Shown: positions 52,733-64,000 of the stretch, in pieces
How positions within the stretch are numbered: position 1 is the first letter of the stretch
Layout of the letters: every line of letters begins with the position of its first letter
Assembly (NCBI GenBank): GCA_026416845.1
Contig: JAOAEL010000002.1
Coordinates: 111,422 to 175,421 of the forward strand
Direction: 5' to 3'
Source of the DNA: Patescibacteria group bacterium
GTDB lineage: Bacteria > Patescibacteriota > Microgenomatia > UBA8517
DNA length: 64,000 nucleotides
Notes under the pieces: generated by a model
Databases searched by the model: none
What the model was told of the DNA's origin: nothing
The model's input: the letters and a program-made list of their open reading frames with translations, nothing else
Program-made: the position numbers and the translations under genes

Positions 52733-53357
52733 GTGCAAATAACTTCCAGAAACATAAAAAACATAGAGCAAGAACTTAGGTTTGAAGTTGATGATATAGA
52801 TAATGCTTTACAAAAAAAAGCTAAATAGTTTTGCAACATTCCAAGGAGTAGAATACATTTTAGACACAATATATGGTTCAGAAAATCAAAAAGAGAAAAT
52901 AAGATATAGAATATCAAACACATTTAGCCAAAGGTTGATAGAAGTAACCTCAAAAAACAAGGTTGAAAACGAGAATAAAAACTCAAAAATAAAAACAGAA
53001 ATAGAAGAAATACTCTATAAAGGAGATGATGAAAATCATGCCATTAGCGCGATAAGTGAAAAAGGCAACTATAAAAAAGAAAACTCTTACGAAAAAATCA
53101 GAATAAACTATTTCTATAAAAACAACCTAAAAATAAGCTTAGATATATATCCTTTTGGCGCATATCTGGAAATAGAGGGAGATCCTGCTGATTTTCAAGA
53201 AGTGGTTGATCTGCTAGGCATGTCAGTTCAAAATTCAACCACCTCAAATGCGGACCAATGCTACCTTAAACTGATAAATATGAAACAAAACAATAGTTTG
53301 AAATATCAAAATTTTCATTGTAAAATCTACTTACCTCGTAATTATAAAAACGATTAA
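52733..53357 (+). pseudogene. CYTH-like (triphosphate tunnel metalloenzyme/class IV adenylate cyclase-like) gene, probably frameshifted at an A8 run
   Basis: Frame A (52733-52828) encodes …NIEQELRFEVDDIDNALQKKAK* resembling the CYTH N-terminal ExExK/F strand; frame B from ATG 52803 encodes 184 aa ending …ISLDIYPFGAYLEIEGD… resembling the CYTH C-terminal motif; frames meet at caaaaaaaag (52811-52820). Confidence 0.35.
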
Positions 53358-54828: not shown

Positions 54829-55887
54829 TTACTTTGTCATCCTTCTTTGAGCAATTATTTTACCATGCTTCCTCAATGCAAATTCTAGTTGCCTAACTAA
54901 AAGCTTTTGACTTTCAGGATCTAGACCCGACTTAAAAACTGTTTTAAGAGCTGAAAATTCTGGATCTGCTAAAATTCCTACCTTTAAATTTTGTGTCTCT
55001 GAAGCAAATTGTTCATAAAGCTTTTTACCCTTATCTGTCACCAATTCTTTCCTAACTTTTTCTACACTCATATCAGGAGACTTAAAAACATCTTCTAAAC
55101 CTTGAATCTCACTCATCCCCTGCAATCCAAGATTTGCCGATATAAGAACAATTTTAGCATAACCACCCAAATTAAATTTTCTATCTTGAAAAAACCCAAC
55201 TTGCACCATAGAAAGCTGATCTCCATCATGACAGGCTTGAGAAAACTCGCTACTTCCTGGCTTTCTAACCACAGCAGCTATTTCTTCATCCGAAAACCCA
55301 TTTCTTTCTGCTACTCCTTTATAATAACCTTCAAAATGATGCTCCAAGATTGCAGTTTTAACTTCTTCTTTTACTTCTTCAGGCAAAGCTCCTAATTTAT
55401 TCTCATCCATACAATCTGTCACCCAAAGAATGGCACTATACATATGGTGAGCTAGATCTTTTAAAGCAGGAGAACCATTCTTAGCTTTTTCAAGTATAGA
55501 ACGCTCAGCAGAACTTAAACCTAAAGTTTGGGCAACTTGTTCCCATTTGTCAGATGACATGATTTCCTCCGCTCGCTTTTGATCCCATTTGCCTCTATCA
55601 TGTCCATATTCAAAAAGTTTAATTTTTAAGATCTCTTCTTCTGTCAATCTACGTCCATACAAATCACTTAATATTTCGCTTGAATTTCTTAAAACAGCAT
55701 TCAAATGATCTTTTTGAGACTGACAATCAAATCTTTCCTCTAACAACCGATCAACATCTTTTTTCAAAAAATCTACTGCTTGCCTAAGCATTTCTACTCT
55801 ACTTTCTGAGGATTCAGTTGGCTGTACTTTTTGTTCTTGTTGGTCTTTGCCAGAAAAGTAAAGCTCGCCCGATGATCCTTCTAACAT
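54829..55887 (-). CDS. hypothetical acidic protein (352 aa) encoded antisense between rplA and rplJ
   Basis: Long ORF, Glu/Asp/Lys-rich, no TM; possible His-rich metal site (HHFEGY, GHDRG) but no confident family. Confidence 0.5.
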   Translation of the reverse strand: MLEGSSGELYFSGKDQQEQKVQPTESSESRVEMLRQAVDFLKKDVDRLLEERFDCQSQKDHLNAVLRNSSEILSDLYGRRLTEEEILKIKLFEYGHDRGKWDQKRAEEIMSSDKWEQVAQTLGLSSAERSILEKAKNGSPALKDLAHHMYSAILWVTDCMDENKLGALPEEVKEEVKTAILEHHFEGYYKGVAERNGFSDEEIAAVVRKPGSSEFSQACHDGDQLSMVQVGFFQDRKFNLGGYAKIVLISANLGLQGMSEIQGLEDVFKSPDMSVEKVRKELVTDKGKKLYEQFASETQNLKVGILADPEFSALKTVFKSGLDPESQKLLVRQLEFALRKHGKIIAQRRMTK

Positions 55888-55989: not shown

Positions 55990-56140
55990 AATTATAAGTT
56001 AAAATTTAGTGGTTTCCCTAAGACAGCGCGCAAGCTAGATCAAAAATCAAACTGTAAGTCGCGCCGAGGAGAAAAATCAAAAATTATTGCGTCAATTTTT
56101 GGCAAGGCTCCTCGTTGGGAGTCTTTTTTATTTGAAAAAT
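55990..56140 (+). promoter_or_regulatory. candidate rplJ (L10) leader region
   Basis: Untranslated GC-richer segment (…gacagcgcgcaagctagat…gtcgcgccgaggag…ggctcctcgttgggagtc…) immediately upstream of rplJ with imperfect stem potential; position matches the L10 autoregulatory leader. Confidence 0.25.
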
Positions 56141-56674
56141 ATGACAAGCGCAAACAGACAAAAAAAAGAAATCAAAGTTGCGGAAATAACAAAAAGTTTT
56201 GAAAGTGCAACCTCAATTGTTTTGGTAAATTACACTGGACTAACGGTCAAAAAGCAACAAGAACTCAAAAAAATGCTAAAGGCCATAAGCGCTTCAATGT
56301 TTGTGGCTAAAAACAATCTCGTGCAAATCGCTAGTAATAACGCAAAATTGCCAAGCGAAGCATTCACAGACGAAGTACTGGCAGGGCCAACAGCATTGGT
56401 AATAACAAAAGAAGATCCCATTGCTCCACTTCAAGTTTTGGCTAGGTTTGCCAAAGAGAATGAAATTCCTCAATTCAAAGTTGGGATTATAGAAGGAACT
56501 TTCTATGACAAATCAGGACTTATCACACTTGCTTCTCTTCCCTCAAAAGAGATTCTATTTGGACAAGCTGTCGGCGCAATTGCCGCGCCAATTTATGGTT
56601 TAGTTAACACAATGCAAGCCAATTTGCAAAAACTGCTTTATATCCTAGACACAAAAGCAAAACAAAAAGCTTAA
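56141..56674 (+). CDS. rplJ: 50S ribosomal protein L10
   Basis: Start MTSANRQKKEIKVAEITKSF… aligns with L10 N-terminus; ORF-track start at 56087 is probably upstream read-through. Confidence 0.85.
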   Translation: MTSANRQKKEIKVAEITKSFESATSIVLVNYTGLTVKKQQELKKMLKAISASMFVAKNNLVQIASNNAKLPSEAFTDEVLAGPTALVITKEDPIAPLQVLARFAKENEIPQFKVGIIEGTFYDKSGLITLASLPSKEILFGQAVGAIAAPIYGLVNTMQANLQKLLYILDTKAKQKA

Positions 56675-56702
56675 GTGAGATTTTGAAAGGTGGTGAACTA
56701 AA

Positions 56703-57137
56703 ATGACAGATGAAACAAAAAAAGAAAAGGAATTATCAAAAAATTTAGCCAAACTTGTTGATGAAATCGCTAGTCTTTCCGTACTTGAGTTATCCGAATT
56801 GGTAAATGCTCTACAGGACAAACTCGGAGTAACAGCTCAAGCTCCGATGATGGCAATGCCAACAACGGCAACCACAACAGCGGCAACTCCAGCAGGAGAC
56901 ACCGCCACTTCCGAACAAAGCGCGGGGGGCGGCACAGTTGTAATGACCAACGCCGGTGCGAACAAAATCGCTGTTATCAAAGCTTTGAGAGAAATAAATC
57001 AAAATTGGGGATTAAAAGAAGCCAAAGATATGACTGAAAACGTCCCAGCCGAAATTTTGAAAAACGCAAAACCTGAAGAAGTCAAAGTCGCAGTCGAGAA
57101 ACTCAAAGCAGCTGGAGCTACTGTGGAAATCAAGTAA
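56703..57137 (+). CDS. rplL: 50S ribosomal protein L7/L12
   Basis: N-terminal dimerisation helix, Ala/Thr/Pro hinge, C-terminal …KALREINQNWGLKEAKDMTENVPAEILKNAKPEEVKVAVEKLKAAGATVEIK. Confidence 0.9.
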   Translation: MTDETKKEKELSKNLAKLVDEIASLSVLELSELVNALQDKLGVTAQAPMMAMPTTATTTAATPAGDTATSEQSAGGGTVVMTNAGANKIAVIKALREINQNWGLKEAKDMTENVPAEILKNAKPEEVKVAVEKLKAAGATVEIK

Positions 57138-57252: not shown

Positions 57253-57945
57253 TTAATCATTTGAAAAAGCTTCTCTTACACTCCTTCTTATTCTATGAAT
57301 AACAGATTTAATTTTAGAAACAGACATGCCCATATAATTGGCTATTTCTTCATAAGAATAGCCGCAGGCTAACAAATTAAAAATTAAGCTATTCTCTTTA
57401 CCTAAAAATAAAAACAAATCTTTCACCTTTTCAGCATTTTTTATTTTTTCACCAATTGGTTCAGTTGAACTAGGAATAAAATTTTGTAAATCAAAATTTT
57501 CATCATTATCTCTTGATACATCAAAATAAATCTGCCTTGCCCAAACTCTCTTTTTTCTCCTCAAATAATCTAAGCAAGTATTTCTAATCACCTTAATTAA
57601 CCAAGCTGCAAAACTCGTGCCACATGCTTGCTGTTGACAAGGACTTTTAGTTGATAATAGTTTGTAACATACATCTTGAAATATATCTTCAAAATCTGTA
57701 GGATCAAGCTGATCCTTAAAATTACTAGCAACTCTAATTGTTAATCTAAAAGCAAGACCATAGAAATTTTCCCAAACTTCACTATCGCCTTCTTGTAATT
57801 TTTTAAAACTAATTTGATCAATTAAGCAATATAAACCATCATTTAAAATTTCTTCATTCTGAGGAACCTGATCTCGAATCCGATCGTAAATATCATTCAA
57901 TTCATCAAAAACTGAAATAAATCTTTGGCCAAAAATTTCACACAT
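57253..57945 (-). CDS. sigma-70 family (ECF-like) RNA polymerase sigma factor
   Basis: Region 2-like FAAWLIKVIRNTCLDYLRRKKR and region 4 HTH GYSYEEIANYMGMSVSKIKSVIHRIRRSVREAF; 230 aa. Confidence 0.65.
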   Translation of the reverse strand: MCEIFGQRFISVFDELNDIYDRIRDQVPQNEEILNDGLYCLIDQISFKKLQEGDSEVWENFYGLAFRLTIRVASNFKDQLDPTDFEDIFQDVCYKLLSTKSPCQQQACGTSFAAWLIKVIRNTCLDYLRRKKRVWARQIYFDVSRDNDENFDLQNFIPSSTEPIGEKIKNAEKVKDLFLFLGKENSLIFNLLACGYSYEEIANYMGMSVSKIKSVIHRIRRSVREAFSND

Positions 57946-58098: not shown

Positions 58099-59760
58099 AT
58101 GTCAATAGAAACAAAAAATGTACTTTTCCCTTTGCGAACTGCTGACTATGCGAATTACCTTGCGACGCAAGAGAAACCACAACCAATTGAACTCTCTGAG
58201 GAAGAACGCAAACAAATCATTGCATACGAGGCCAAGCTTTACGAAGAGCTCTCCCCAACACTCAAAAAAATGGTTGGCATACACACAATATTTCCTGAAT
58301 ATTTAACTACCAATGAGGGCTGGCAAATGGCACAAAGCATATACTCAGCAAAAAATCCTGAAATTGTCAACATGCCAAAACCACAAAGCCTGGAAGAAGC
58401 AATAAATATTTTCAATAAATTGCGTATTTACAGTATAGACAAAGAATTAAGATCAGAAATCGAAGCAAAATCTCTAAGATACGCACGAGAAAAATTTATA
58501 GCAGGAATAGATAAGAATACAAATCCTGATGATTTAGAAGATCCAATTACTGCATCAAGGGTTTACAATCCCAAAACACTAATTCAAAAAACGCAAGAGC
58601 TAAGAGAATTCAAAAGAAAGTTAAAAGCAAGACGCGAAGGAAACACTCATAACAAAACTCAAACCAATTTGGAAATAGCAAAAGAAATAATTGACAGAAT
58701 ATATCAAAGATACATTAACGTCAGGTTGGCGGTGCTATATGAGGATGCTTTTGTGGCTTTAAACGATCCAGCAATTTCAGAAGAAGACAAAGAGAAAATA
58801 CGCAAACTATTCCCAGGACATAACACCAATGACAAAGACAGAAGAATTCAAACTCTTGGAAGAATTGAAAAATTTTACCAAGGAGCTGACAGAAAAGAAG
58901 GATCTTCCTACTTCCCAACAATATCCGAATCTATCGCATCAGCTATTGAGCAAAAAATGAGAATTGAAAATCAAGAAGGAAATGAATTATACCAAGAACA
59001 CCAAAAAATAAAAATTGACGCCAATAAATACCAAGAAATTGCAAACGCTGTCTTAGACCGCATGGGAGCAACTCAAGCTGGTTGGAAAACTAAAATACGT
59101 GAAAAACCTGGTGTGGCTACAGATCCCAAAGAAAAAATATACTACATACCAAAAGATTATAGTAGAAGTTTGCCCGCAACTATACAAAGTATTGCGCACG
59201 AAGCAGAAGGCCATATCTTGCGTGATTTAAACAAATCTAAACTCCCACTTAAATTACTAAAATATGGAAACACAGGACGGATTCAACAAACCGCAGAAGC
59301 CGCCGCTGTTTTTGTTGAGGAAGAAACAATACGGCGGGTATATGGACGAGAGAGACAAATGACAGGAACTTACTATATAATTATGAGAGAACGGGAAAAA
59401 GGAGGAAGCTTTAAGCATTGTGTTATAGCACTTGTAAGAAAAGGTAAAGATCCCAAAACAGCATTTACTAGTACTTTAAGAATCTTCAATAATGGCAGAA
59501 TCCCTCTTAATGATCCATCGCACCACATAGTAAATACAGAAGAACTTGCTTACCATGAACCAGTGGCAGAAAGGCTGGCAAAACTTGGTCTTAGTAAACT
59601 TCTTTTTGTCTCAGCAGTTGATATTTATACATACCAAGACTTGGTTAGAATTGGGATGTTACAACTTGATAAAATTCAAGAACCTCAATTTATAACAGCT
59701 GAAGTTGCGCTTGAAGTTTTAAGCAGATATTCTTCAGAATCAGAAAAGACAGTTAACTGA
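58099..59760 (+). CDS. HExxH zinc metallopeptidase-like protein (candidate DUF1704/MATCAP-type carboxypeptidase)
   Basis: 553 aa; single HExxH (IAHEAEGHILR) in C-terminal half; divergent from sigma gene; adjacent to three RimK-like ligases, the genomic context reported for DUF1704. Confidence 0.5.
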   Translation: MSIETKNVLFPLRTADYANYLATQEKPQPIELSEEERKQIIAYEAKLYEELSPTLKKMVGIHTIFPEYLTTNEGWQMAQSIYSAKNPEIVNMPKPQSLEEAINIFNKLRIYSIDKELRSEIEAKSLRYAREKFIAGIDKNTNPDDLEDPITASRVYNPKTLIQKTQELREFKRKLKARREGNTHNKTQTNLEIAKEIIDRIYQRYINVRLAVLYEDAFVALNDPAISEEDKEKIRKLFPGHNTNDKDRRIQTLGRIEKFYQGADRKEGSSYFPTISESIASAIEQKMRIENQEGNELYQEHQKIKIDANKYQEIANAVLDRMGATQAGWKTKIREKPGVATDPKEKIYYIPKDYSRSLPATIQSIAHEAEGHILRDLNKSKLPLKLLKYGNTGRIQQTAEAAAVFVEEETIRRVYGRERQMTGTYYIIMREREKGGSFKHCVIALVRKGKDPKTAFTSTLRIFNNGRIPLNDPSHHIVNTEELAYHEPVAERLAKLGLSKLLFVSAVDIYTYQDLVRIGMLQLDKIQEPQFITAEVALEVLSRYSSESEKTVN

Positions 59761-59775
59761 ATAATTCATTCAAAC

Positions 59776-60441
59776 TTATTCACTTTCTTCAGGTTCCCTG
59801 CCAGTCATTACAAGCCAAACCACCTCAACTAACTTAGGATCTATAAAAGGAGTTTGGTCATCCGGTCTTGGAACCCCTGCATCCTTAAAAAGTTCATCCA
59901 AATCTTGCAAAGCCGTTTGTAAATCTTCTTCTCTTTCACCAAACAATCTTTCAATTTCTAGTCTTGCACTTTTCCATAAGCTTTGGTTTAACCTATCAAC
60001 AAAAATACCAATCTCTTCATCAGTTTCCCCAAGCGCAATACCAAGAAGAATGACTACCAACTTCCTCAAACCTTCTGAGCGGAGATTGCCATCTTTTTCT
60101 TGAGATCTTGACTCACTGAACTCCAAATTTTTTACAAAATCTTCGATTTTCCTAAATCTTTCTTCGCTCAACACTCTTTCTCCCTCTAGCCACTGTAAAT
60201 CACTTATAATTTTATCATAAACGTCGCCAGCGTCCCCGTCGTCAACGTTATCAATAGAAACTAGTGCTCCAGAAAGCTCTAGAGCGCGTCTCATTACTTC
60301 TCTTTGGTCATCACTAAACATCAAAACAACAGGTTCATTTACAATATCTTCTAATGAAGCAAACTTACAATCAAGCTCTTTTAATCCTGGAACTTTTTCC
60401 GTTAAAGGGACCTGACCAGGCTGTTGTTCATAATTTGGCAT
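59776..60441 (-). CDS. acidic hypothetical protein ending in …TGREPEESE
   Basis: 221 aa, strongly acidic, no TM; C-terminus Glu-rich like the RimK substrate S6. Confidence 0.5.
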   Translation of the reverse strand: MPNYEQQPGQVPLTEKVPGLKELDCKFASLEDIVNEPVVLMFSDDQREVMRRALELSGALVSIDNVDDGDAGDVYDKIISDLQWLEGERVLSEERFRKIEDFVKNLEFSESRSQEKDGNLRSEGLRKLVVILLGIALGETDEEIGIFVDRLNQSLWKSARLEIERLFGEREEDLQTALQDLDELFKDAGVPRPDDQTPFIDPKLVEVVWLVMTGREPEESE

Positions 60442-60446
60442 AAATA

Positions 60447-60494
60447 TTAACGATATTATACAACATTAAACGATATTATACAACATTACTTGTA
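60447..60494 (-). promoter_or_regulatory. tandem 20-bp direct repeats each carrying an extended -10 (TGTTGTATAAT) plus an inverted third copy; candidate promoter/operator for the acidic-protein gene
   Basis: aacgatattatacaacatta x2 (60447-60486) followed by cttgtataatacaa; reverse complement reads TGTTGTATAATATCG twice, 5-45 bp upstream of the 60441 start. Confidence 0.4.
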
Positions 60495-61384
60495 TAATAC
60501 AATTTCTCAAAATACTCCACAATCGCTTTTGCCACATTAATTCCAGTTGACTCAATTCCTTCAATTTGCGGACCGGGGTTTACTTCCAAAACATAAGGCT
60601 CGCCTGTTTTTGCATGAACCATCACATCAACTCCTGCTATTTCAGTTTGCATAATTTTAGCCGCCAGTTCAGCTACCTCTTGAACCTTTTTGTTTTTGGA
60701 AAGATCAAATCTTGCCACACTGCCCCCTTGGCTTACATTGCTTCTGAAATCGCCTTTCTTGGGAGTGCGTTTGATTGCTCCAACTGCCTTGTACCCAACG
60801 CAAAACACGCGAATGTCTCCATCATTTGGTATAAATTCTCTGACAACACAAGATTTGACATTTTCTGTCAACAAGGAAACCATTTTTTCAAGCTCTATTT
60901 CATCTTTGACAAGATACACATCCTCTCCTCGATGTCCTTGGCTTGCTTTGACTATAAGTGGGAAGGTAAATTGTTTTTTTATACTCTCAACCGATCTATC
61001 AGAGAATAAAATCGCACTTTTCGGATAATTTATTTTTGCTTCTGTTTGTTTCAAATAATCAATCGCTGGAGTTTGGTAATAATTGTACGCAGGATCAATG
61101 GATTTTTTATTCACTATTATGGTTTTATAGTTTTTGTGAAGATACAAAGCCGCTGTAAACCACTCCCATAGTCTACTGCCAACAATCATATATATAAGAT
61201 CATATTCTTCAAGCTTTTTGCCACTTGAAAGCATTGGCTTGAAATTATTTTTGTCCGCCAAAATTACAAGTTCAGATGCCAAACATCCATCAACACTATG
61301 ACCCTTTTTTTCTGCTTCTTCCTTTATACGAAGGAATTGAGGCTTTTTGGTAAGACCAGCTATTAGTATTTTCATTTTTTTCAC
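60476..61384 (-). CDS. RimK-like ATP-grasp ligase (alpha-L-glutamate ligase family) paralog 1
   Basis: 302 aa; ATP-grasp core …FPLIVKASQGHRGEDVYLV…REFIPNDGDIRVFCVGYKAVGAIKRTPKKGDFRSNVSQGG…GVDVMVHAKTGEPYVLEVNPGPQIEGIE. Confidence 0.8.
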   Translation of the reverse strand: MKKMKILIAGLTKKPQFLRIKEEAEKKGHSVDGCLASELVILADKNNFKPMLSSGKKLEEYDLIYMIVGSRLWEWFTAALYLHKNYKTIIVNKKSIDPAYNYYQTPAIDYLKQTEAKINYPKSAILFSDRSVESIKKQFTFPLIVKASQGHRGEDVYLVKDEIELEKMVSLLTENVKSCVVREFIPNDGDIRVFCVGYKAVGAIKRTPKKGDFRSNVSQGGSVARFDLSKNKKVQEVAELAAKIMQTEIAGVDVMVHAKTGEPYVLEVNPGPQIEGIESTGINVAKAIVEYFEKLYYTSNVV

Positions 61385-61389
61385 AAAAT

Positions 61390-62310
61390 CTATCTTGCGT
61401 TTGCTATTGCATATTGCAAATATTCCTTTGTTATATTTTCGCCAGTCGCCTCCTCCATACCAAGCATGCCGGGCGTATGATTGGCTTCAAGCACATACCT
61501 TCTGCCATCTTGTGTGATTAAAATATCTACCCCCCCAATTGTCAGTCCTACAGCGTCAAGGGCTTTTCTTGCGAGATCAATATCTTTTTGATCTGGAGCA
61601 AACAATTCAACTGAACCACCAAGCGAAAAGTTTGCTCTGAAATCACCTTCTTTGGGAATTCGTTTCATACAATAAACTTTTTCTCCAATCACTAAAATTC
61701 TAAGATCATGAATATAAGGAATAAATTCCTGAATCACAAATCGCTCTGCTTCCTTTTTTAATTTAAATTCCTTTTCATTCGGATCAAGACCCAAACTATC
61801 AATTAAACTTTCTCTTTCTTTTATAAACAAGTCAAGCTCTTCCTTGCTAGCTACTTTGTAAATCCCTTTACCCCTTCCTGTTTTAGTTAGCTTGATAATT
61901 GCAGGATAGCCAACATTATTCACAACTTCTTCATACATGCTAAAATAGGACACATGGTAAGTCTTGGGCATTGGTATGTTGTAAGTTGCCAACTTTATAA
62001 AATCGGTTAATTTATTAATAGAATATTTGTGATTAAGAAGATTATTGTCAAAAACTTTTACTCCCTTTGTTTTGTAATAAGAAACCAAAGCGGTAATTGC
62101 GTGAAGTAATTTGAAAATCGCACGAGTGATAATTATATCTCCCTTTCTAGGCTCGTAACCTTCAACCTTTATTTCGCCATTTACTATCGAATAATTAAAA
62201 TCTTTGAGGCTAAGCAAACAAAAATCATAACCTAAAGCCTGCGCCTCTTGCGCAATTCTTCCTTGCTCTCCCATCTCAGGGCTTGTGGTGATAACAACTA
62301 TTCTTGCCAC
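61390..62310 (-). CDS. RimK-like ATP-grasp ligase paralog 2
   Basis: 306 aa; …YPAIIKLTKTGRGKGIYKV…QEFIPYIHDLRILVIGEKVYCMKRIPKEGDFRANFSLGG…GVDILITQDGRRYVLEANHTPGMLGME. Confidence 0.8.
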   Translation of the reverse strand: MARIVVITTSPEMGEQGRIAQEAQALGYDFCLLSLKDFNYSIVNGEIKVEGYEPRKGDIIITRAIFKLLHAITALVSYYKTKGVKVFDNNLLNHKYSINKLTDFIKLATYNIPMPKTYHVSYFSMYEEVVNNVGYPAIIKLTKTGRGKGIYKVASKEELDLFIKERESLIDSLGLDPNEKEFKLKKEAERFVIQEFIPYIHDLRILVIGEKVYCMKRIPKEGDFRANFSLGGSVELFAPDQKDIDLARKALDAVGLTIGGVDILITQDGRRYVLEANHTPGMLGMEEATGENITKEYLQYAIANAR

Positions 62311-62332
62311 AACAACGATTTTATCACAAATC

Positions 62333-63649
62333 TTATTCTTTTTTCTTATCTACATCTATCCGTGGTTTCACCAGAAAACCAGCCAAATCTTTTCTGCCAA
62401 TAATCACTTTCCTTTTAAGATTTTTGCGATCTGTAACACCAGCCATCGTGGTAATTTTTTTGCCTTTTAGCCAATATGTAAAAACAATTATAGGTCGATC
62501 TTCCTGCACTCCAAGAGCGCTTTGAACAGTTCTTTTTTTGATAATATTTTCAGGTCTGATTAAATTTAATTCTTTCGCAAGCTTAACATCTATAGAAGTT
62601 CTCCACGCGCCAGTGTCAATTTTTGCCAAGACTTTCACTTTCTTCCGCTTTGACGATTTAATGGCAATCTCTTCCAAAGCTGATATGACTTCCTTATCCT
62701 TTTTCAAAACTTTTTCTGAGAAGTATTCTGAAAAAAGCGCTTTTGCTATATTTACCCCATGTTCAGCATTTCTCACTTTTAATTCATCAACTCTATCAAG
62801 CCTGCGTTTCAGCCCCGCTTGATTGGCAAGCTGTATTGCCAAGCCAGGCATGCTATTTAATTCAAGCACCATTGGTCCTTTTTCGGGATGAATCACAATA
62901 TCCGCTCCTAAATATCCAAGTTTGCTTACTTCTTGGCATTTGACTGCTATATCCAAAATTTTGTCCCAGTAAGGAATTTTAATTCCATGAAGCTTCCTTT
63001 TAGTGCCTGGTTTAAACTTAATAGGTTGACCATACATCACAGCTTTTGTGGTAATTCCAGTTGCTATATCAATACCCACCCCTATTGCTCCCTGATGAAG
63101 ATTAGCGCGCCCACCTGAATCTTTAGTGGGAAGCCTAAGCATTGCCATAACAGGCACTTTGTTAAAAACAATTATTCTAATATCCGGTGTCCCACGATAA
63201 GCATACTTGCGAAACGCTTTGTCCCGACCAACATATTCTTGAATAAAAGCAACATCAGGAATATTCCCGTAAGAAAAAGCTCCTTCAAGAATATCCATTA
63301 CATGAAGCTGAAAATCAGAAACAATCATCCTTTTCCTCTGTGTTGTCACCCAATATACACTACCATCTTTAGTTTTCACCTTTTTTTTGATAACGATAAT
63401 GCCCTCACCTCCAAAACCTTTTGAAGGCTTTATAGCAAAAGCCCCTGGTATACTTTCCCAATCAAAAGAAAATACATCGGAGGGAGATTTAAACTTGGCA
63501 TAAATTGTTGGAGTCGGTATTTCAGCTTTTTTTAGAACTTTAGCAGTCAAAAGTTTTGACGCTGCAATACGTTTACCCTTTTTTGTGTTGTAGGGATAAG
63601 AATAAAGCTTGGTGCGAGCATTAAGTCCTAAAATAGAAGATAGTTTCAT
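62333..63649 (-). CDS. RimK-related ATP-grasp ligase fused to C-terminal retropepsin-like (DTGA) protease domain
   Basis: 438 aa; N-terminal ~300 aa ATP-grasp (…IKPSKGFGGEGIIVI…FIQEYVGRDKAFRKYAYRG…DIRIIVFNKVPVMAMLRL…GGRANLHQGA…GADIVIHPEKGPMVLELNSMPG); C-terminal ~120 aa with VLAKIDTGAWRTSID aspartyl-protease signature (the so-called ATP-dependent zinc protease domain that accompanies RimK). Confidence 0.75.
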   Translation of the reverse strand: MKLSSILGLNARTKLYSYPYNTKKGKRIAASKLLTAKVLKKAEIPTPTIYAKFKSPSDVFSFDWESIPGAFAIKPSKGFGGEGIIVIKKKVKTKDGSVYWVTTQRKRMIVSDFQLHVMDILEGAFSYGNIPDVAFIQEYVGRDKAFRKYAYRGTPDIRIIVFNKVPVMAMLRLPTKDSGGRANLHQGAIGVGIDIATGITTKAVMYGQPIKFKPGTKRKLHGIKIPYWDKILDIAVKCQEVSKLGYLGADIVIHPEKGPMVLELNSMPGLAIQLANQAGLKRRLDRVDELKVRNAEHGVNIAKALFSEYFSEKVLKKDKEVISALEEIAIKSSKRKKVKVLAKIDTGAWRTSIDVKLAKELNLIRPENIIKKRTVQSALGVQEDRPIIVFTYWLKGKKITTMAGVTDRKNLKRKVIIGRKDLAGFLVKPRIDVDKKKE

Positions 63650-63655
63650 TTTACT

Positions 63656-64000
63656 TTAACTTTTTATTAATTTTCTAAACCTCCAAAGTTCAAGTAATCT
63701 AAGACCAACATACTGCCCAAGCAAAATGTTCGCGACAAATACACCAATCATCAGCACCTCCGGGTTCAAAAGTGCAAAAACTTGAATTGGTTCAAGAGTT
63801 AAAAACAAATATGAAACAAGAGCAAGCAAAAGAGTTTCTGTTGTTATTCCAACAGCGTAACGAGCGCTTTTGCCAAGCTGAGCTTTTGTAAAATCTTCAG
63901 CCAATAAAACTAATATAAGAATAGGGAAAATAGATACATTTGCAATGGCAGAAACAGAAAAATACGGGGCAAAAAACAAAAGACACAAAACGCCAAGCAC
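63656..64000 (-). CDS. C-terminal multi-TM fragment of an upstream-starting gene (candidate 7TM partner of the RimK/protease system)
   Basis: 114 aa open to window edge, 3-4 hydrophobic helices; 6 bp upstream of the ATP-grasp-protease fusion, consistent with co-transcription. Confidence 0.4.
   Translation of the reverse strand: MLGVLCLLFFAPYFSVSAIANVSIFPILILVLLAEDFTKAQLGKSARYAVGITTETLLLALVSYLFLTLEPIQVFALLNPEVLMIGVFVANILLGQYVGLRLLELWRFRKLIKS

Follow-up and report, generated by a model that had tools for sequence, protein, structure and literature searches.

A MATCAP-like metallopeptidase gene faces a RimK-type ligase operon

A plus-strand gene at positions 58099–59760 of the 64,000-nucleotide stretch of DNA that we analysed (the window) is predicted to encode a long-form MATCAP/DUF1704-like gluzincin metallopeptidase of 553 aa. 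The source organism is an ultra-small CPR/Patescibacteria bacterium. Based on homology, conservation of the catalytic residues and linkage of the gene to RimK-type ligases, we consider it probable, at about 60%, that the protein is a metal-dependent, exo-acting carboxypeptidase that trims tails built by the co-encoded ligases, the residues removed being most plausibly glutamates.

We confirmed the open reading frame, which runs from ATG to TGA and whose translation contains the peptide SIAHEAEGHILRD. The start of the protein (M1, S2) is kept in relatives at 85% and 39% identity. The original prediction described an "HExxH protein"; the metal-binding motif on which it rested, HEAEGH, is present, but it spans six residues and is HExxxH rather than HExxH (H367, E368 and H372; aa 367–372; positions 59197–59214, plus strand). 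As had been claimed, this is the only classical metal-binding signature of the protein, there being no second HExxH or HExxxH motif. The corrected spacing strengthens the MATCAP idea, because human MATCAP/TMCP enzymes are unusual gluzincins that share exactly this extended HExxxH spacing (PMC10499314).

The predicted absence of a transmembrane segment was borne out by a maximum 19-residue Kyte-Doolittle hydropathy of only 1.21. Inspection of the N-terminus revealed no signal peptide, and the two analyses together suggest that the protein is cytoplasmic. Counts of promoters and terminators around the gene were no higher than expected by chance, and an Rfam search of its surroundings returned only four tRNAs, all distant. 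PADLOC gave no match, and we therefore rejected a reading of the locus as an anti-phage defence system.

Profile comparisons place the protein in the MATCAP/DUF1704 superfamily

The MATCAP-like family assignment made in the original prediction is supported by Pfam, by profile-profile homology and by conserved active-site residues. Only one Pfam family was significant, PF08014 MATCAP (known earlier as DUF1704), which scored 31.5 bits where its gathering cutoff is 27 (E 1.2e-7). Just part of the model is matched, over aa 292–466 (HMM positions 104–276 of 365; positions 58972–59496, plus strand), a region that contains a small beta-sheet, the active-site helix and a glutamate helix in an AF2 model. 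An identical protein in NCBI, from a Patescibacteria MAG, is named "DUF1704 domain-containing protein"; the family label was already public, and from these comparisons the assignment is sound.

Membership of three related groups was rejected. NCBIfam TIGR02421 (QEGLA-motif protein) covers the same region at 31.5 bits, far under its equivalog cutoff of 338.65; the protein has TAEAAA instead of QEGLA, and hhalign against the Shinella member alone gave a probability of only 9.6%. For Peptidase M32 (carboxypeptidase Taq), PF02074 had no match at E ≤ 1, and the TM-score to the M32 structure 5wvu was 0.28–0.30. DPP III (M49), the other HExxxH peptidase family, was absent from Pfam and NCBIfam matches at E ≤ 1 and gave no PDB sequence match.

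Sequence searches of the PDB with phmmer and hmmsearch, using the protein, a 3-sequence profile or a 134-sequence family profile, gave no MATCAP match, and no chain was matched. We therefore drew the link to human MATCAP transitively, via canonical paralogs. Canonical PF08014 paralogs adjoin the long-form gene at loci L011 (361 aa, 122.8 bits) and L013 (457 aa, 71.4 bits), although none is encoded within the window. Using hhalign, the 134-sequence family profile matched the L013 protein with a probability of 98.4% (E 6.4e-15, 385 columns) and the L011 paralog with a probability of 92.6%; the latter also finds human MATCAP (7z5g) without an intermediate, at E 2.6e-8. The family profile matched Tetrahymena TMCP, an experimentally validated deglutamylase (PMC10499314) whose sequence we translated from that paper's methods, with a probability of 79% (E 1.5e-5). 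Against A5, a five-sequence canonical profile from CPR, Vibrio, Shinella and Tetrahymena, the family profile reached 98.5% (E 2.2e-15, 221 columns), and A5 in turn matches human MATCAP 7z5g at E 7e-45. By this chain of homology, the 553-aa protein is predicted to belong to one superfamily with human MATCAP1/TMCP1 (KIAA0895L; 7Z5G/7Z5H/7Z6S), TMCP2 and Tetrahymena TMCP.

The metal active site appears intact

In all alignments to canonical MATCAPs, the catalytic residues are in register: H367, E368 and H372 correspond to human H280, E281 and H285, with HEAEGH aligned to human HEIGTH (280–285), and E400 corresponds to E316 of the EEGLA motif. R461 and Y485 likewise align with human R373 and Y393, the numbers of the latter two being counted from the alignment of the 361-aa paralog with 7z5g. 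The protein thus has in common with MATCAP/TMCP the unusual HExxxH motif, the catalytic Glu, the Glu of the third ligand, the Arg and the Tyr. The substitutions E281A and E316A abolish TMCP1 activity (PMC10499314).

We examined conservation across 134 relatives, a family with a mean column identity of only 17%. E368, H372 and Y485 are present in all 134; E400 is kept in 133, R461 in 131, E487 in 130 and H367 in 128. HEAEGH is not a chance motif: when the protein is shuffled, HExxxH arises in no more than 1.7% of cases, and its E368 and H372 are invariant, with H367 nearly so. The original prediction had staked the assignment on conservation of the motif Glu and of a downstream third zinc ligand, and on the best HMM match; both glutamates (E368 and E400) are conserved among homologues, and the only significant Pfam model is MATCAP.

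The predicted third metal ligand, E400 (positions 59296–59298, plus strand), lies in a motif aligned to EEGLA/QEGLA and is matched to the invariant EG of A5. In MATCAPs this ligand is expected some 30–35 residues beyond HExxxH. The motif around E400 is degenerate, reading AEAAA here and xE[AG]GA in the family consensus, in contrast to the EEGLA of MATCAP. R461 (positions 59479–59481, plus strand) is aligned to the R of the canonical R..RG motif and is a candidate contact for the substrate carboxylate; Y485 (positions 59551–59553, plus strand) is aligned to the Y of the canonical KD..Y motif and is a candidate catalytic or transition-state residue. Both are invariant in A5. Of the canonical C-terminal R..RG and KD..Y..G motifs, R461 and Y485 are kept, whereas the RG and KD positions are not (K481 in 55/134 and D482 in 49/134). 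Overall, the alignments suggest an intact metal active site.

An AF2 model of the protein had a pLDDT of 94.6 (an earlier model from a 3-sequence alignment, with a pLDDT of 46.7, was discarded). It contains 61% helix and 5% strand, in agreement with the prediction of a largely alpha-helical protein, and has the order beta-sheet, HExxxH helix, Glu helix. Compared with canonical bacterial domains, the protein is ~200 aa longer and has extra N-terminal helices. The best Foldseek match in the PDB was the Thermus M32 metallocarboxypeptidase 5wvu (probability 0.93, E 6e-3), with ACE and neurolysin as lower matches; MATCAP structures were absent among the top 50. The M32 (Taq/Thermus) metallocarboxypeptidases resemble the 553-aa protein, itself a predicted carboxypeptidase, in being all-helical gluzincins of ~500 aa whose metal motif falls in the second half of the chain, but the TM-score to 5wvu is low, as given above. 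M32 enzymes use HExxH.

The opposite strand encodes ligases and Rlo-like components

The original prediction placed the gene beside RimK ligases. This is accurate: two RimK-family genes lie on the minus strand, convergent with the 553-aa gene and separated from it by one orphan gene. The first gene of this minus-strand operon, cut by the window end, encodes the C-terminal part of a 7TM_transglut-family, RloB-like membrane protein (positions 63656–64000; PF14402, 44.9 bits, HMM positions 150–247 of 248). It is followed by a 438-aa fusion (positions 62333–63649) of an RloC-like ATP-grasp domain, of the ATPgrasp_ST/TIGR02291 type (PF14397, 230.8 bits; TIGR02291, 265 bits), to a C-terminal RimB/RloA-like retropepsin domain. 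The retropepsin domain has weak matches to PF05618 and to retropepsin (RloA3), and carries DTGA at aa 345–348 (positions 62606–62617); DTGA and (I/V)GR are conserved in four orthologs of the fusion, which is 39–50% identical across loci L010, L011 and L012. The two RimK-family ATP-grasp ligases come next, paralog 2 at positions 61390–62310 (PF08443, 80.6 bits; TIGR00768, 117.7 bits, under the cutoff) and paralog 1, an alpha-L-glutamate ligase by its profile match, at positions 60476–61384 (PF08443, 117 bits; TIGR00768, 146.1 bits, above the cutoff of 143.4).

The last gene of the operon (positions 59776–60441, minus strand) encodes a very acidic 221-aa protein of no family, with a net charge of −26 and a C-terminus ending in EPEESE. 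It resembles a RimK acceptor tail. Among 5.8 billion proteins it had no homologue but itself, and it is missing from every other locus; we therefore rejected it as a conserved substrate, and regard it as a local and speculative candidate for a glutamylation acceptor. No other predicted protein of the window has an acidic C-terminal tail; apart from the orphan, a C-terminal Glu occurs only in the ATP-grasp-retropepsin fusion (DKKKE).

The pairing of an ATP-grasp ligase with a dedicated peptidase is an already known kind of system. RimK extends the C-terminus of S6 with glutamates and also synthesises free poly-alpha-glutamate, the RimB and RloA retropepsins cleave the polyE tails made by RimK, and deletion of either RloB, a 7TM protein, or RloC, an ATP-grasp protein, suppresses the phenotypes that loss of RloA causes (PMC11957051). 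As is likely in the window, the RimK-RimB system of Pseudomonas and RloABC oppose a RimK-type glutamate ligase with a dedicated polyE-cleaving peptidase, and the window operon has counterparts of the Rlo components in its RloB-like 7TM protein, RloC/TIGR02291-like ATP-grasp domain and RimB/RloA-like retropepsin domain. By contrast, the retropepsin domain of the window forms the C-terminal part of the ATP-grasp protein and has no signal peptide, rather than being a separate secreted protein. RloB carries an inactive transglutaminase domain, whereas complete CPR orthologs of the 7TM protein, at only 215–234 aa, are too short for one. Relative to the Pseudomonas systems as described, CPR modules add one to three RimK paralogs and the MATCAP-like metallopeptidase.

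Linkage to ATP-grasp ligases recurs across lineages

We located related loci with a hand-designed DNA pattern for HEIEGHVL, and removed many unrelated or canonical-type matches with local HMMs. A RimK or ATPgrasp_ST gene lies ≤1 kb from the long-form gene in 12 of the 18 informative loci, defined as independent loci with ≥1.5 kb visible upstream; the other six (L002, L009, L013, L056, L062 and L072) have no nearby ATP-grasp gene. The linked ligase gene usually comes immediately before the long-form gene, in the same orientation and with its stop codon overlapping the start codon that follows; at L003, L025, L026 and L065, among others, the gene in this overlapping position is RimK. The full module, in the order 7TM, ATP-grasp-retropepsin, one to three RimK genes and long-form MATCAP, lies on one strand at L010, L011, L091 and L101, and in convergent form at L012 and in the window. 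Its location right after the ribosomal genes rplJ-rplL was seen repeatedly, and this placement after rplL is new. Given the recurrent arrangement, the long-form gene of the window is probably functionally coupled to the ligase module on the opposite strand.

Canonical bacterial DUF1704/TIGR02421 proteins ("flavohemoglobin expression-modulating QEGLA motif protein") have the same catalytic domain and are also found with ATP-grasp ligases. In Shinella, an operon encodes an N-formylglutamate amidohydrolase (FGase), the QEGLA protein and a GSH-synthase-like ATP-grasp protein, in that order, and Vibrio has an FGase-MATCAP fusion. The canonical QEGLA proteins thus occur with FGase, whereas the 553-aa protein has no N-formylglutamate amidohydrolase domain or neighbour. 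We found no literature that ties bacterial DUF1704/MATCAP to RimK; an older comparative-genomics study, that of Iyer et al. in 2009 on amidoligases, may describe this linkage. Nor did we find in the literature a demonstrated function for bacterial DUF1704/QEGLA proteins. That MATCAP itself is an enzyme has been known only since 2022.

The protein probably trims ligase-built tails

In the mechanism that we favour, H367 and H372 of the HExxxH motif would hold a metal together with E400, E368 would act as the general base, and the invariant Y485 and conserved R461 would line the substrate site. The RimK-type ligases would build a peptide tail, or free poly- or oligo-glutamate, and the peptidase would shorten either product from its C-terminus, taking off what are most plausibly glutamates. 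Its exo activity would complement the endo-acting retropepsin domain and so set tail length. The same writer/eraser logic would apply as for the TTL(L)s and MATCAP/TMCP on tubulin, or for RimK and RimB on ribosomal protein S6. Consistent with such a pairing, TMCP1/2 and Tetrahymena TMCP take off C-terminal residues singly and shorten polyglutamate chains (PMC10499314), and the residues trimmed by eukaryotic TMCPs include polyglutamate added by the TTLL ATP-grasp ligases. The substrate would have to differ from that of MATCAP, because the host, as a bacterium, is expected to lack microtubules.

It is unlikely that the peptidase instead prepares substrates for the RimK-type ligases, stripping the encoded C-terminal residue or residues to expose an acceptor in the way that detyrosination of alpha-tubulin exposes a Glu. 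This rests on the same homology and linkage as the trimming of tails, and no sequence feature tells the two roles apart. Removal of the encoded terminal Tyr is the primary activity of human MATCAP (PMC10499314), and a second eraser could be redundant in a module that already has a retropepsin domain of polyE-cleaving type with a conserved DTGA; however, TMCPs also deglutamylate, indicating that the family is not limited to priming, and we found no conserved candidate target encoded in the module. We also think it improbable that the protein is a housekeeping carboxypeptidase of M32/Taq-like oligopeptide turnover, its proximity to ligases being inherited synteny without coupling. The best fold match in the PDB is the Thermus M32 enzyme, with ACE and neurolysin further down, one family member matches Pfam Peptidase_M32 weakly (6e-5), a third of the informative loci lack a nearby ligase, and the window gene is convergent with the ligase operon. 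By contrast, the window protein itself has no Pfam M32 match and reaches MATCAP by hhalign at E 2e-15, and the proteobacterial canonical MATCAP genes are likewise paired with ATP-grasp genes. Moreover, the stop/start overlaps with RimK recur in lineages as distant as Saccharibacteria, Microgenomates and a Bdellovibrionales-labelled MAG, a pattern more characteristic of translational coupling than of drift.

Release of a product from a carrier protein is very improbable. By the logic of LysW/LysX/LysK, in which the metallopeptidase LysK releases lysine from LysW, a ligase would load a metabolite onto an acidic carrier at its C-terminal Glu, from which the peptidase would later free the product. 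Both RimK paralogs have LysX matches (98 and 90 bits), and the ligase operon closes with the gene of a highly acidic protein whose final residue is Glu; but the LysX scores are far under the cutoff of 275.6, the acidic protein is an orphan confined to this locus and is not LysW-like, and tailoring enzymes of the LysZ/LysY/LysJ type are absent from the cluster. A non-catalytic or regulatory MATCAP-like protein, a pseudo-enzyme or scaffold that binds acidic tails or the ligases, is likewise very improbable. The family lies at the margin of what the Pfam model detects and has degraded RG and KD motifs, and the canonical paralog beside some members (L011, L013) could supply the activity; that paralog, however, is absent from the window, and retention of the four metal and catalytic residues and of the invariant Tyr, in a family of such low column identity, argues for selection on catalysis.

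If the peptidase does trim ligase-built tails, a testable function follows for bacterial DUF1704 proteins. The locus and the CPR family to which it belongs tie a MATCAP-type active site genetically to RimK-type glutamate ligases, and suggest a prokaryotic precedent, as a linked gene pair, for the eukaryotic ligase/carboxypeptidase pair of the tubulin code. A broader and more doubtful proposal is that the CPR module, with its RimK-type writers, endo-acting retropepsin and exo-acting MATCAP-like eraser, forms a "C-terminal tail code" that modifies a ribosomal or translation-associated protein, and that the TTL(L)/MATCAP cycle descends from the prokaryotic ligase-MATCAP pair. If this were true, the original job of MATCAP would have been to reverse ATP-grasp peptide tailing, and eukaryotes would later have applied it to tubulin.

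The long-form family is a divergent clade of CPR bacteria

A homologue search with the family alignment returned only three close relatives. In a profile search of 1.84 billion representative proteins, 383 clusters matched at E ≤ 0.001, mostly proteins of 550–700 aa with end-to-end matches. Those members that are named, from Parcubacteria and Dojkabacteria, are called "hypothetical protein", and only 5 of 67 sampled members reached Pfam MATCAP at E ≤ 0.01. The family is therefore a separate clade that the Pfam MATCAP model barely reaches, and the window protein happens to pass the threshold. Our genome scan found hosts in Saccharibacteria, Moranbacteria, Microgenomates, Shapirobacteria, Peribacteria, Paceibacterota, Parcubacteria, Abawacabacteria and Dojkabacteria; the hosts without a CPR label were two "Bdellovibrionales" MAGs and one labelled only "bacterium". 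These comparisons suggest that the long-form clade is divergent, paralogous to canonical DUF1704 and almost exclusive to CPR/Patescibacteria. Its description as a large, mostly unannotated and CPR-restricted clade is new, as is its setting in an Rlo-like module whose ATP-grasp and retropepsin are fused. Most members carry the "hypothetical protein" label and are missed by Pfam, and a dedicated profile would improve the annotation of CPR genomes.

About half of the wider long-form family has HExxH in place of HExxxH. The spacing of the zinc motif thus appears to flip between the two forms inside a single clade, which is also new.

Motif spacing varies within the long-form family

We compared the metal-binding motifs of the long-form MATCAP-like peptidases in an alignment of 134 sequences (A2). 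The motif, which lies at window positions 59197-59214, is variable in its spacing at the alignment column of residue 370: HExxxH, mostly as HEIEGH, is present in 69 of the 134 sequences, and classical HExxH in the remaining 65. For 29 of the 134, the nearest neighbour has the opposite spacing type, suggesting that one-residue indels arose repeatedly within the zinc-binding helix of this family. All five of the canonical MATCAP domains examined have HExxxH.

The sequence HEIEGH(V)L, as found in the CPR long-form clade, also occurs in shorter, canonical-type MATCAP-like proteins of ~25 genomes from Myxococcota/Polyangiaceae, 'Deltaproteobacteria' and Gammaproteobacteria (loci L019, L027-L030, L037, L039, L040, L055, L066, L073, L075, L080, L084, L093, L095, L096, L100 and L116, among others). 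Against a profile of canonical PF08014 proteins, these non-CPR proteins score 30-121 bits; none of them matches the profile of the long-form clade. A Peregrinibacteria protein (L110 2879-4351, PFDS01000056.1) matches both profiles weakly and almost equally (long-form, 62 bits; canonical, 47 bits), and may thus be intermediate between the long-form and canonical clades.

Canonical MATCAP paralogs and their gene partners

At two loci, a canonical PF08014 paralog immediately adjoins the long-form gene: a 361-aa protein at L011 9838-10923 on the plus strand (122.8 bits) and a 457-aa protein at L013 9829-11202 on the minus strand (71.4 bits). Such adjacency suggests either that two carboxypeptidases share out the work or that they form a heteromer. 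The L011 operon also includes a gene for a GNAT acetyltransferase.

In Proteobacteria, N-formylglutamate amidohydrolase is paired with the 'QEGLA motif' MATCAP, as a separate upstream gene in Shinella (L015 4397-8139, plasmid CP069302.1) and as an N-terminal fusion in Vibrio (L014 5116-7107, plasmid NZ_CP049914.1). The Shinella locus has a glutathione-synthase-like ATP-grasp as an additional partner. These pairings suggest that the substrates of this proteobacterial clade are small peptides or metabolites that contain Glu.

An Rlo-like module and an acidic orphan in the ligase operon

The minus-strand gene at 62333-63649 encodes an RloC/TIGR02291-like ATP-grasp with a C-terminal RimB/RloA-like retropepsin domain (DTGA at 62606-62617), and the same fusion is found at L010 5824-7128, L011 3488-4822 and L012 9449-10900. 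The DTGA and (I/V)GR motifs of the retropepsin domain are conserved. Being part of a fusion with a cytoplasmic enzyme, the domain lacks a signal peptide. The fusion gene adjoins a gene for a short 7TM_transglut protein, and CPR bacteria thus have an Rlo-like module, whereas RloB of the Rlo systems is reported to be 96% restricted to Proteobacteria (PMC11957051).

The ligase operon closes with a gene (59776-60441, minus strand) for a very acidic 221-aa orphan protein with 30 E, 22 D, a net charge of -26 and the C-terminus ...GREPEESE, which resembles the acidic tail of S6 that is lengthened by RimK. A database search with this protein matched only itself, and the gene is absent from all related loci.

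Placement of the family gene and ligase module after rplL

The gene that usually follows rplL is rpoB. In five loci, the family gene or the entire ligase module lies directly after rplL, which encodes L7/L12 (window 56087-57137, containing rplJ and rplL, with 58099-64000; the sister MAG, L001; L002 2483-4612; L012 4403-12746; L059 5160-8000). These loci span at least three distant CPR lineages, namely the clade of the window, Dojkabacteria and Microgenomates. The adjacency could reflect inherited synteny or hint at a ribosome-related target; neither L10 nor L7/L12 has acidic C-terminal residues here.

Between rplL and the MATCAP-like gene, on the opposite strand, is an inserted ECF-type sigma-70 factor gene (57253-57945, minus strand; TIGR02937, 65 bits). 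The sister MAG has one with an identity of only 31%, and the remaining loci next to rplL lack a sigma gene here. Between nusG and rplK, a 184-aa plus-strand ORF without a family match (52803-53357) shares ~93% identity with its sister MAG version, called there as 203 aa (L001 3714-4325). The L11-L1-L10-L12 cluster is itself interrupted, between rplA and rplJ, by an antisense gene (54829-55887, minus strand) for a 352-aa protein without a family match, which is 69% identical to its sister MAG counterpart (L001 5817-6899). In a Dojkabacteria genome, an opposite-strand, family-less gene (L012 13072-13686) lies at the equivalent place, a correspondence of position.
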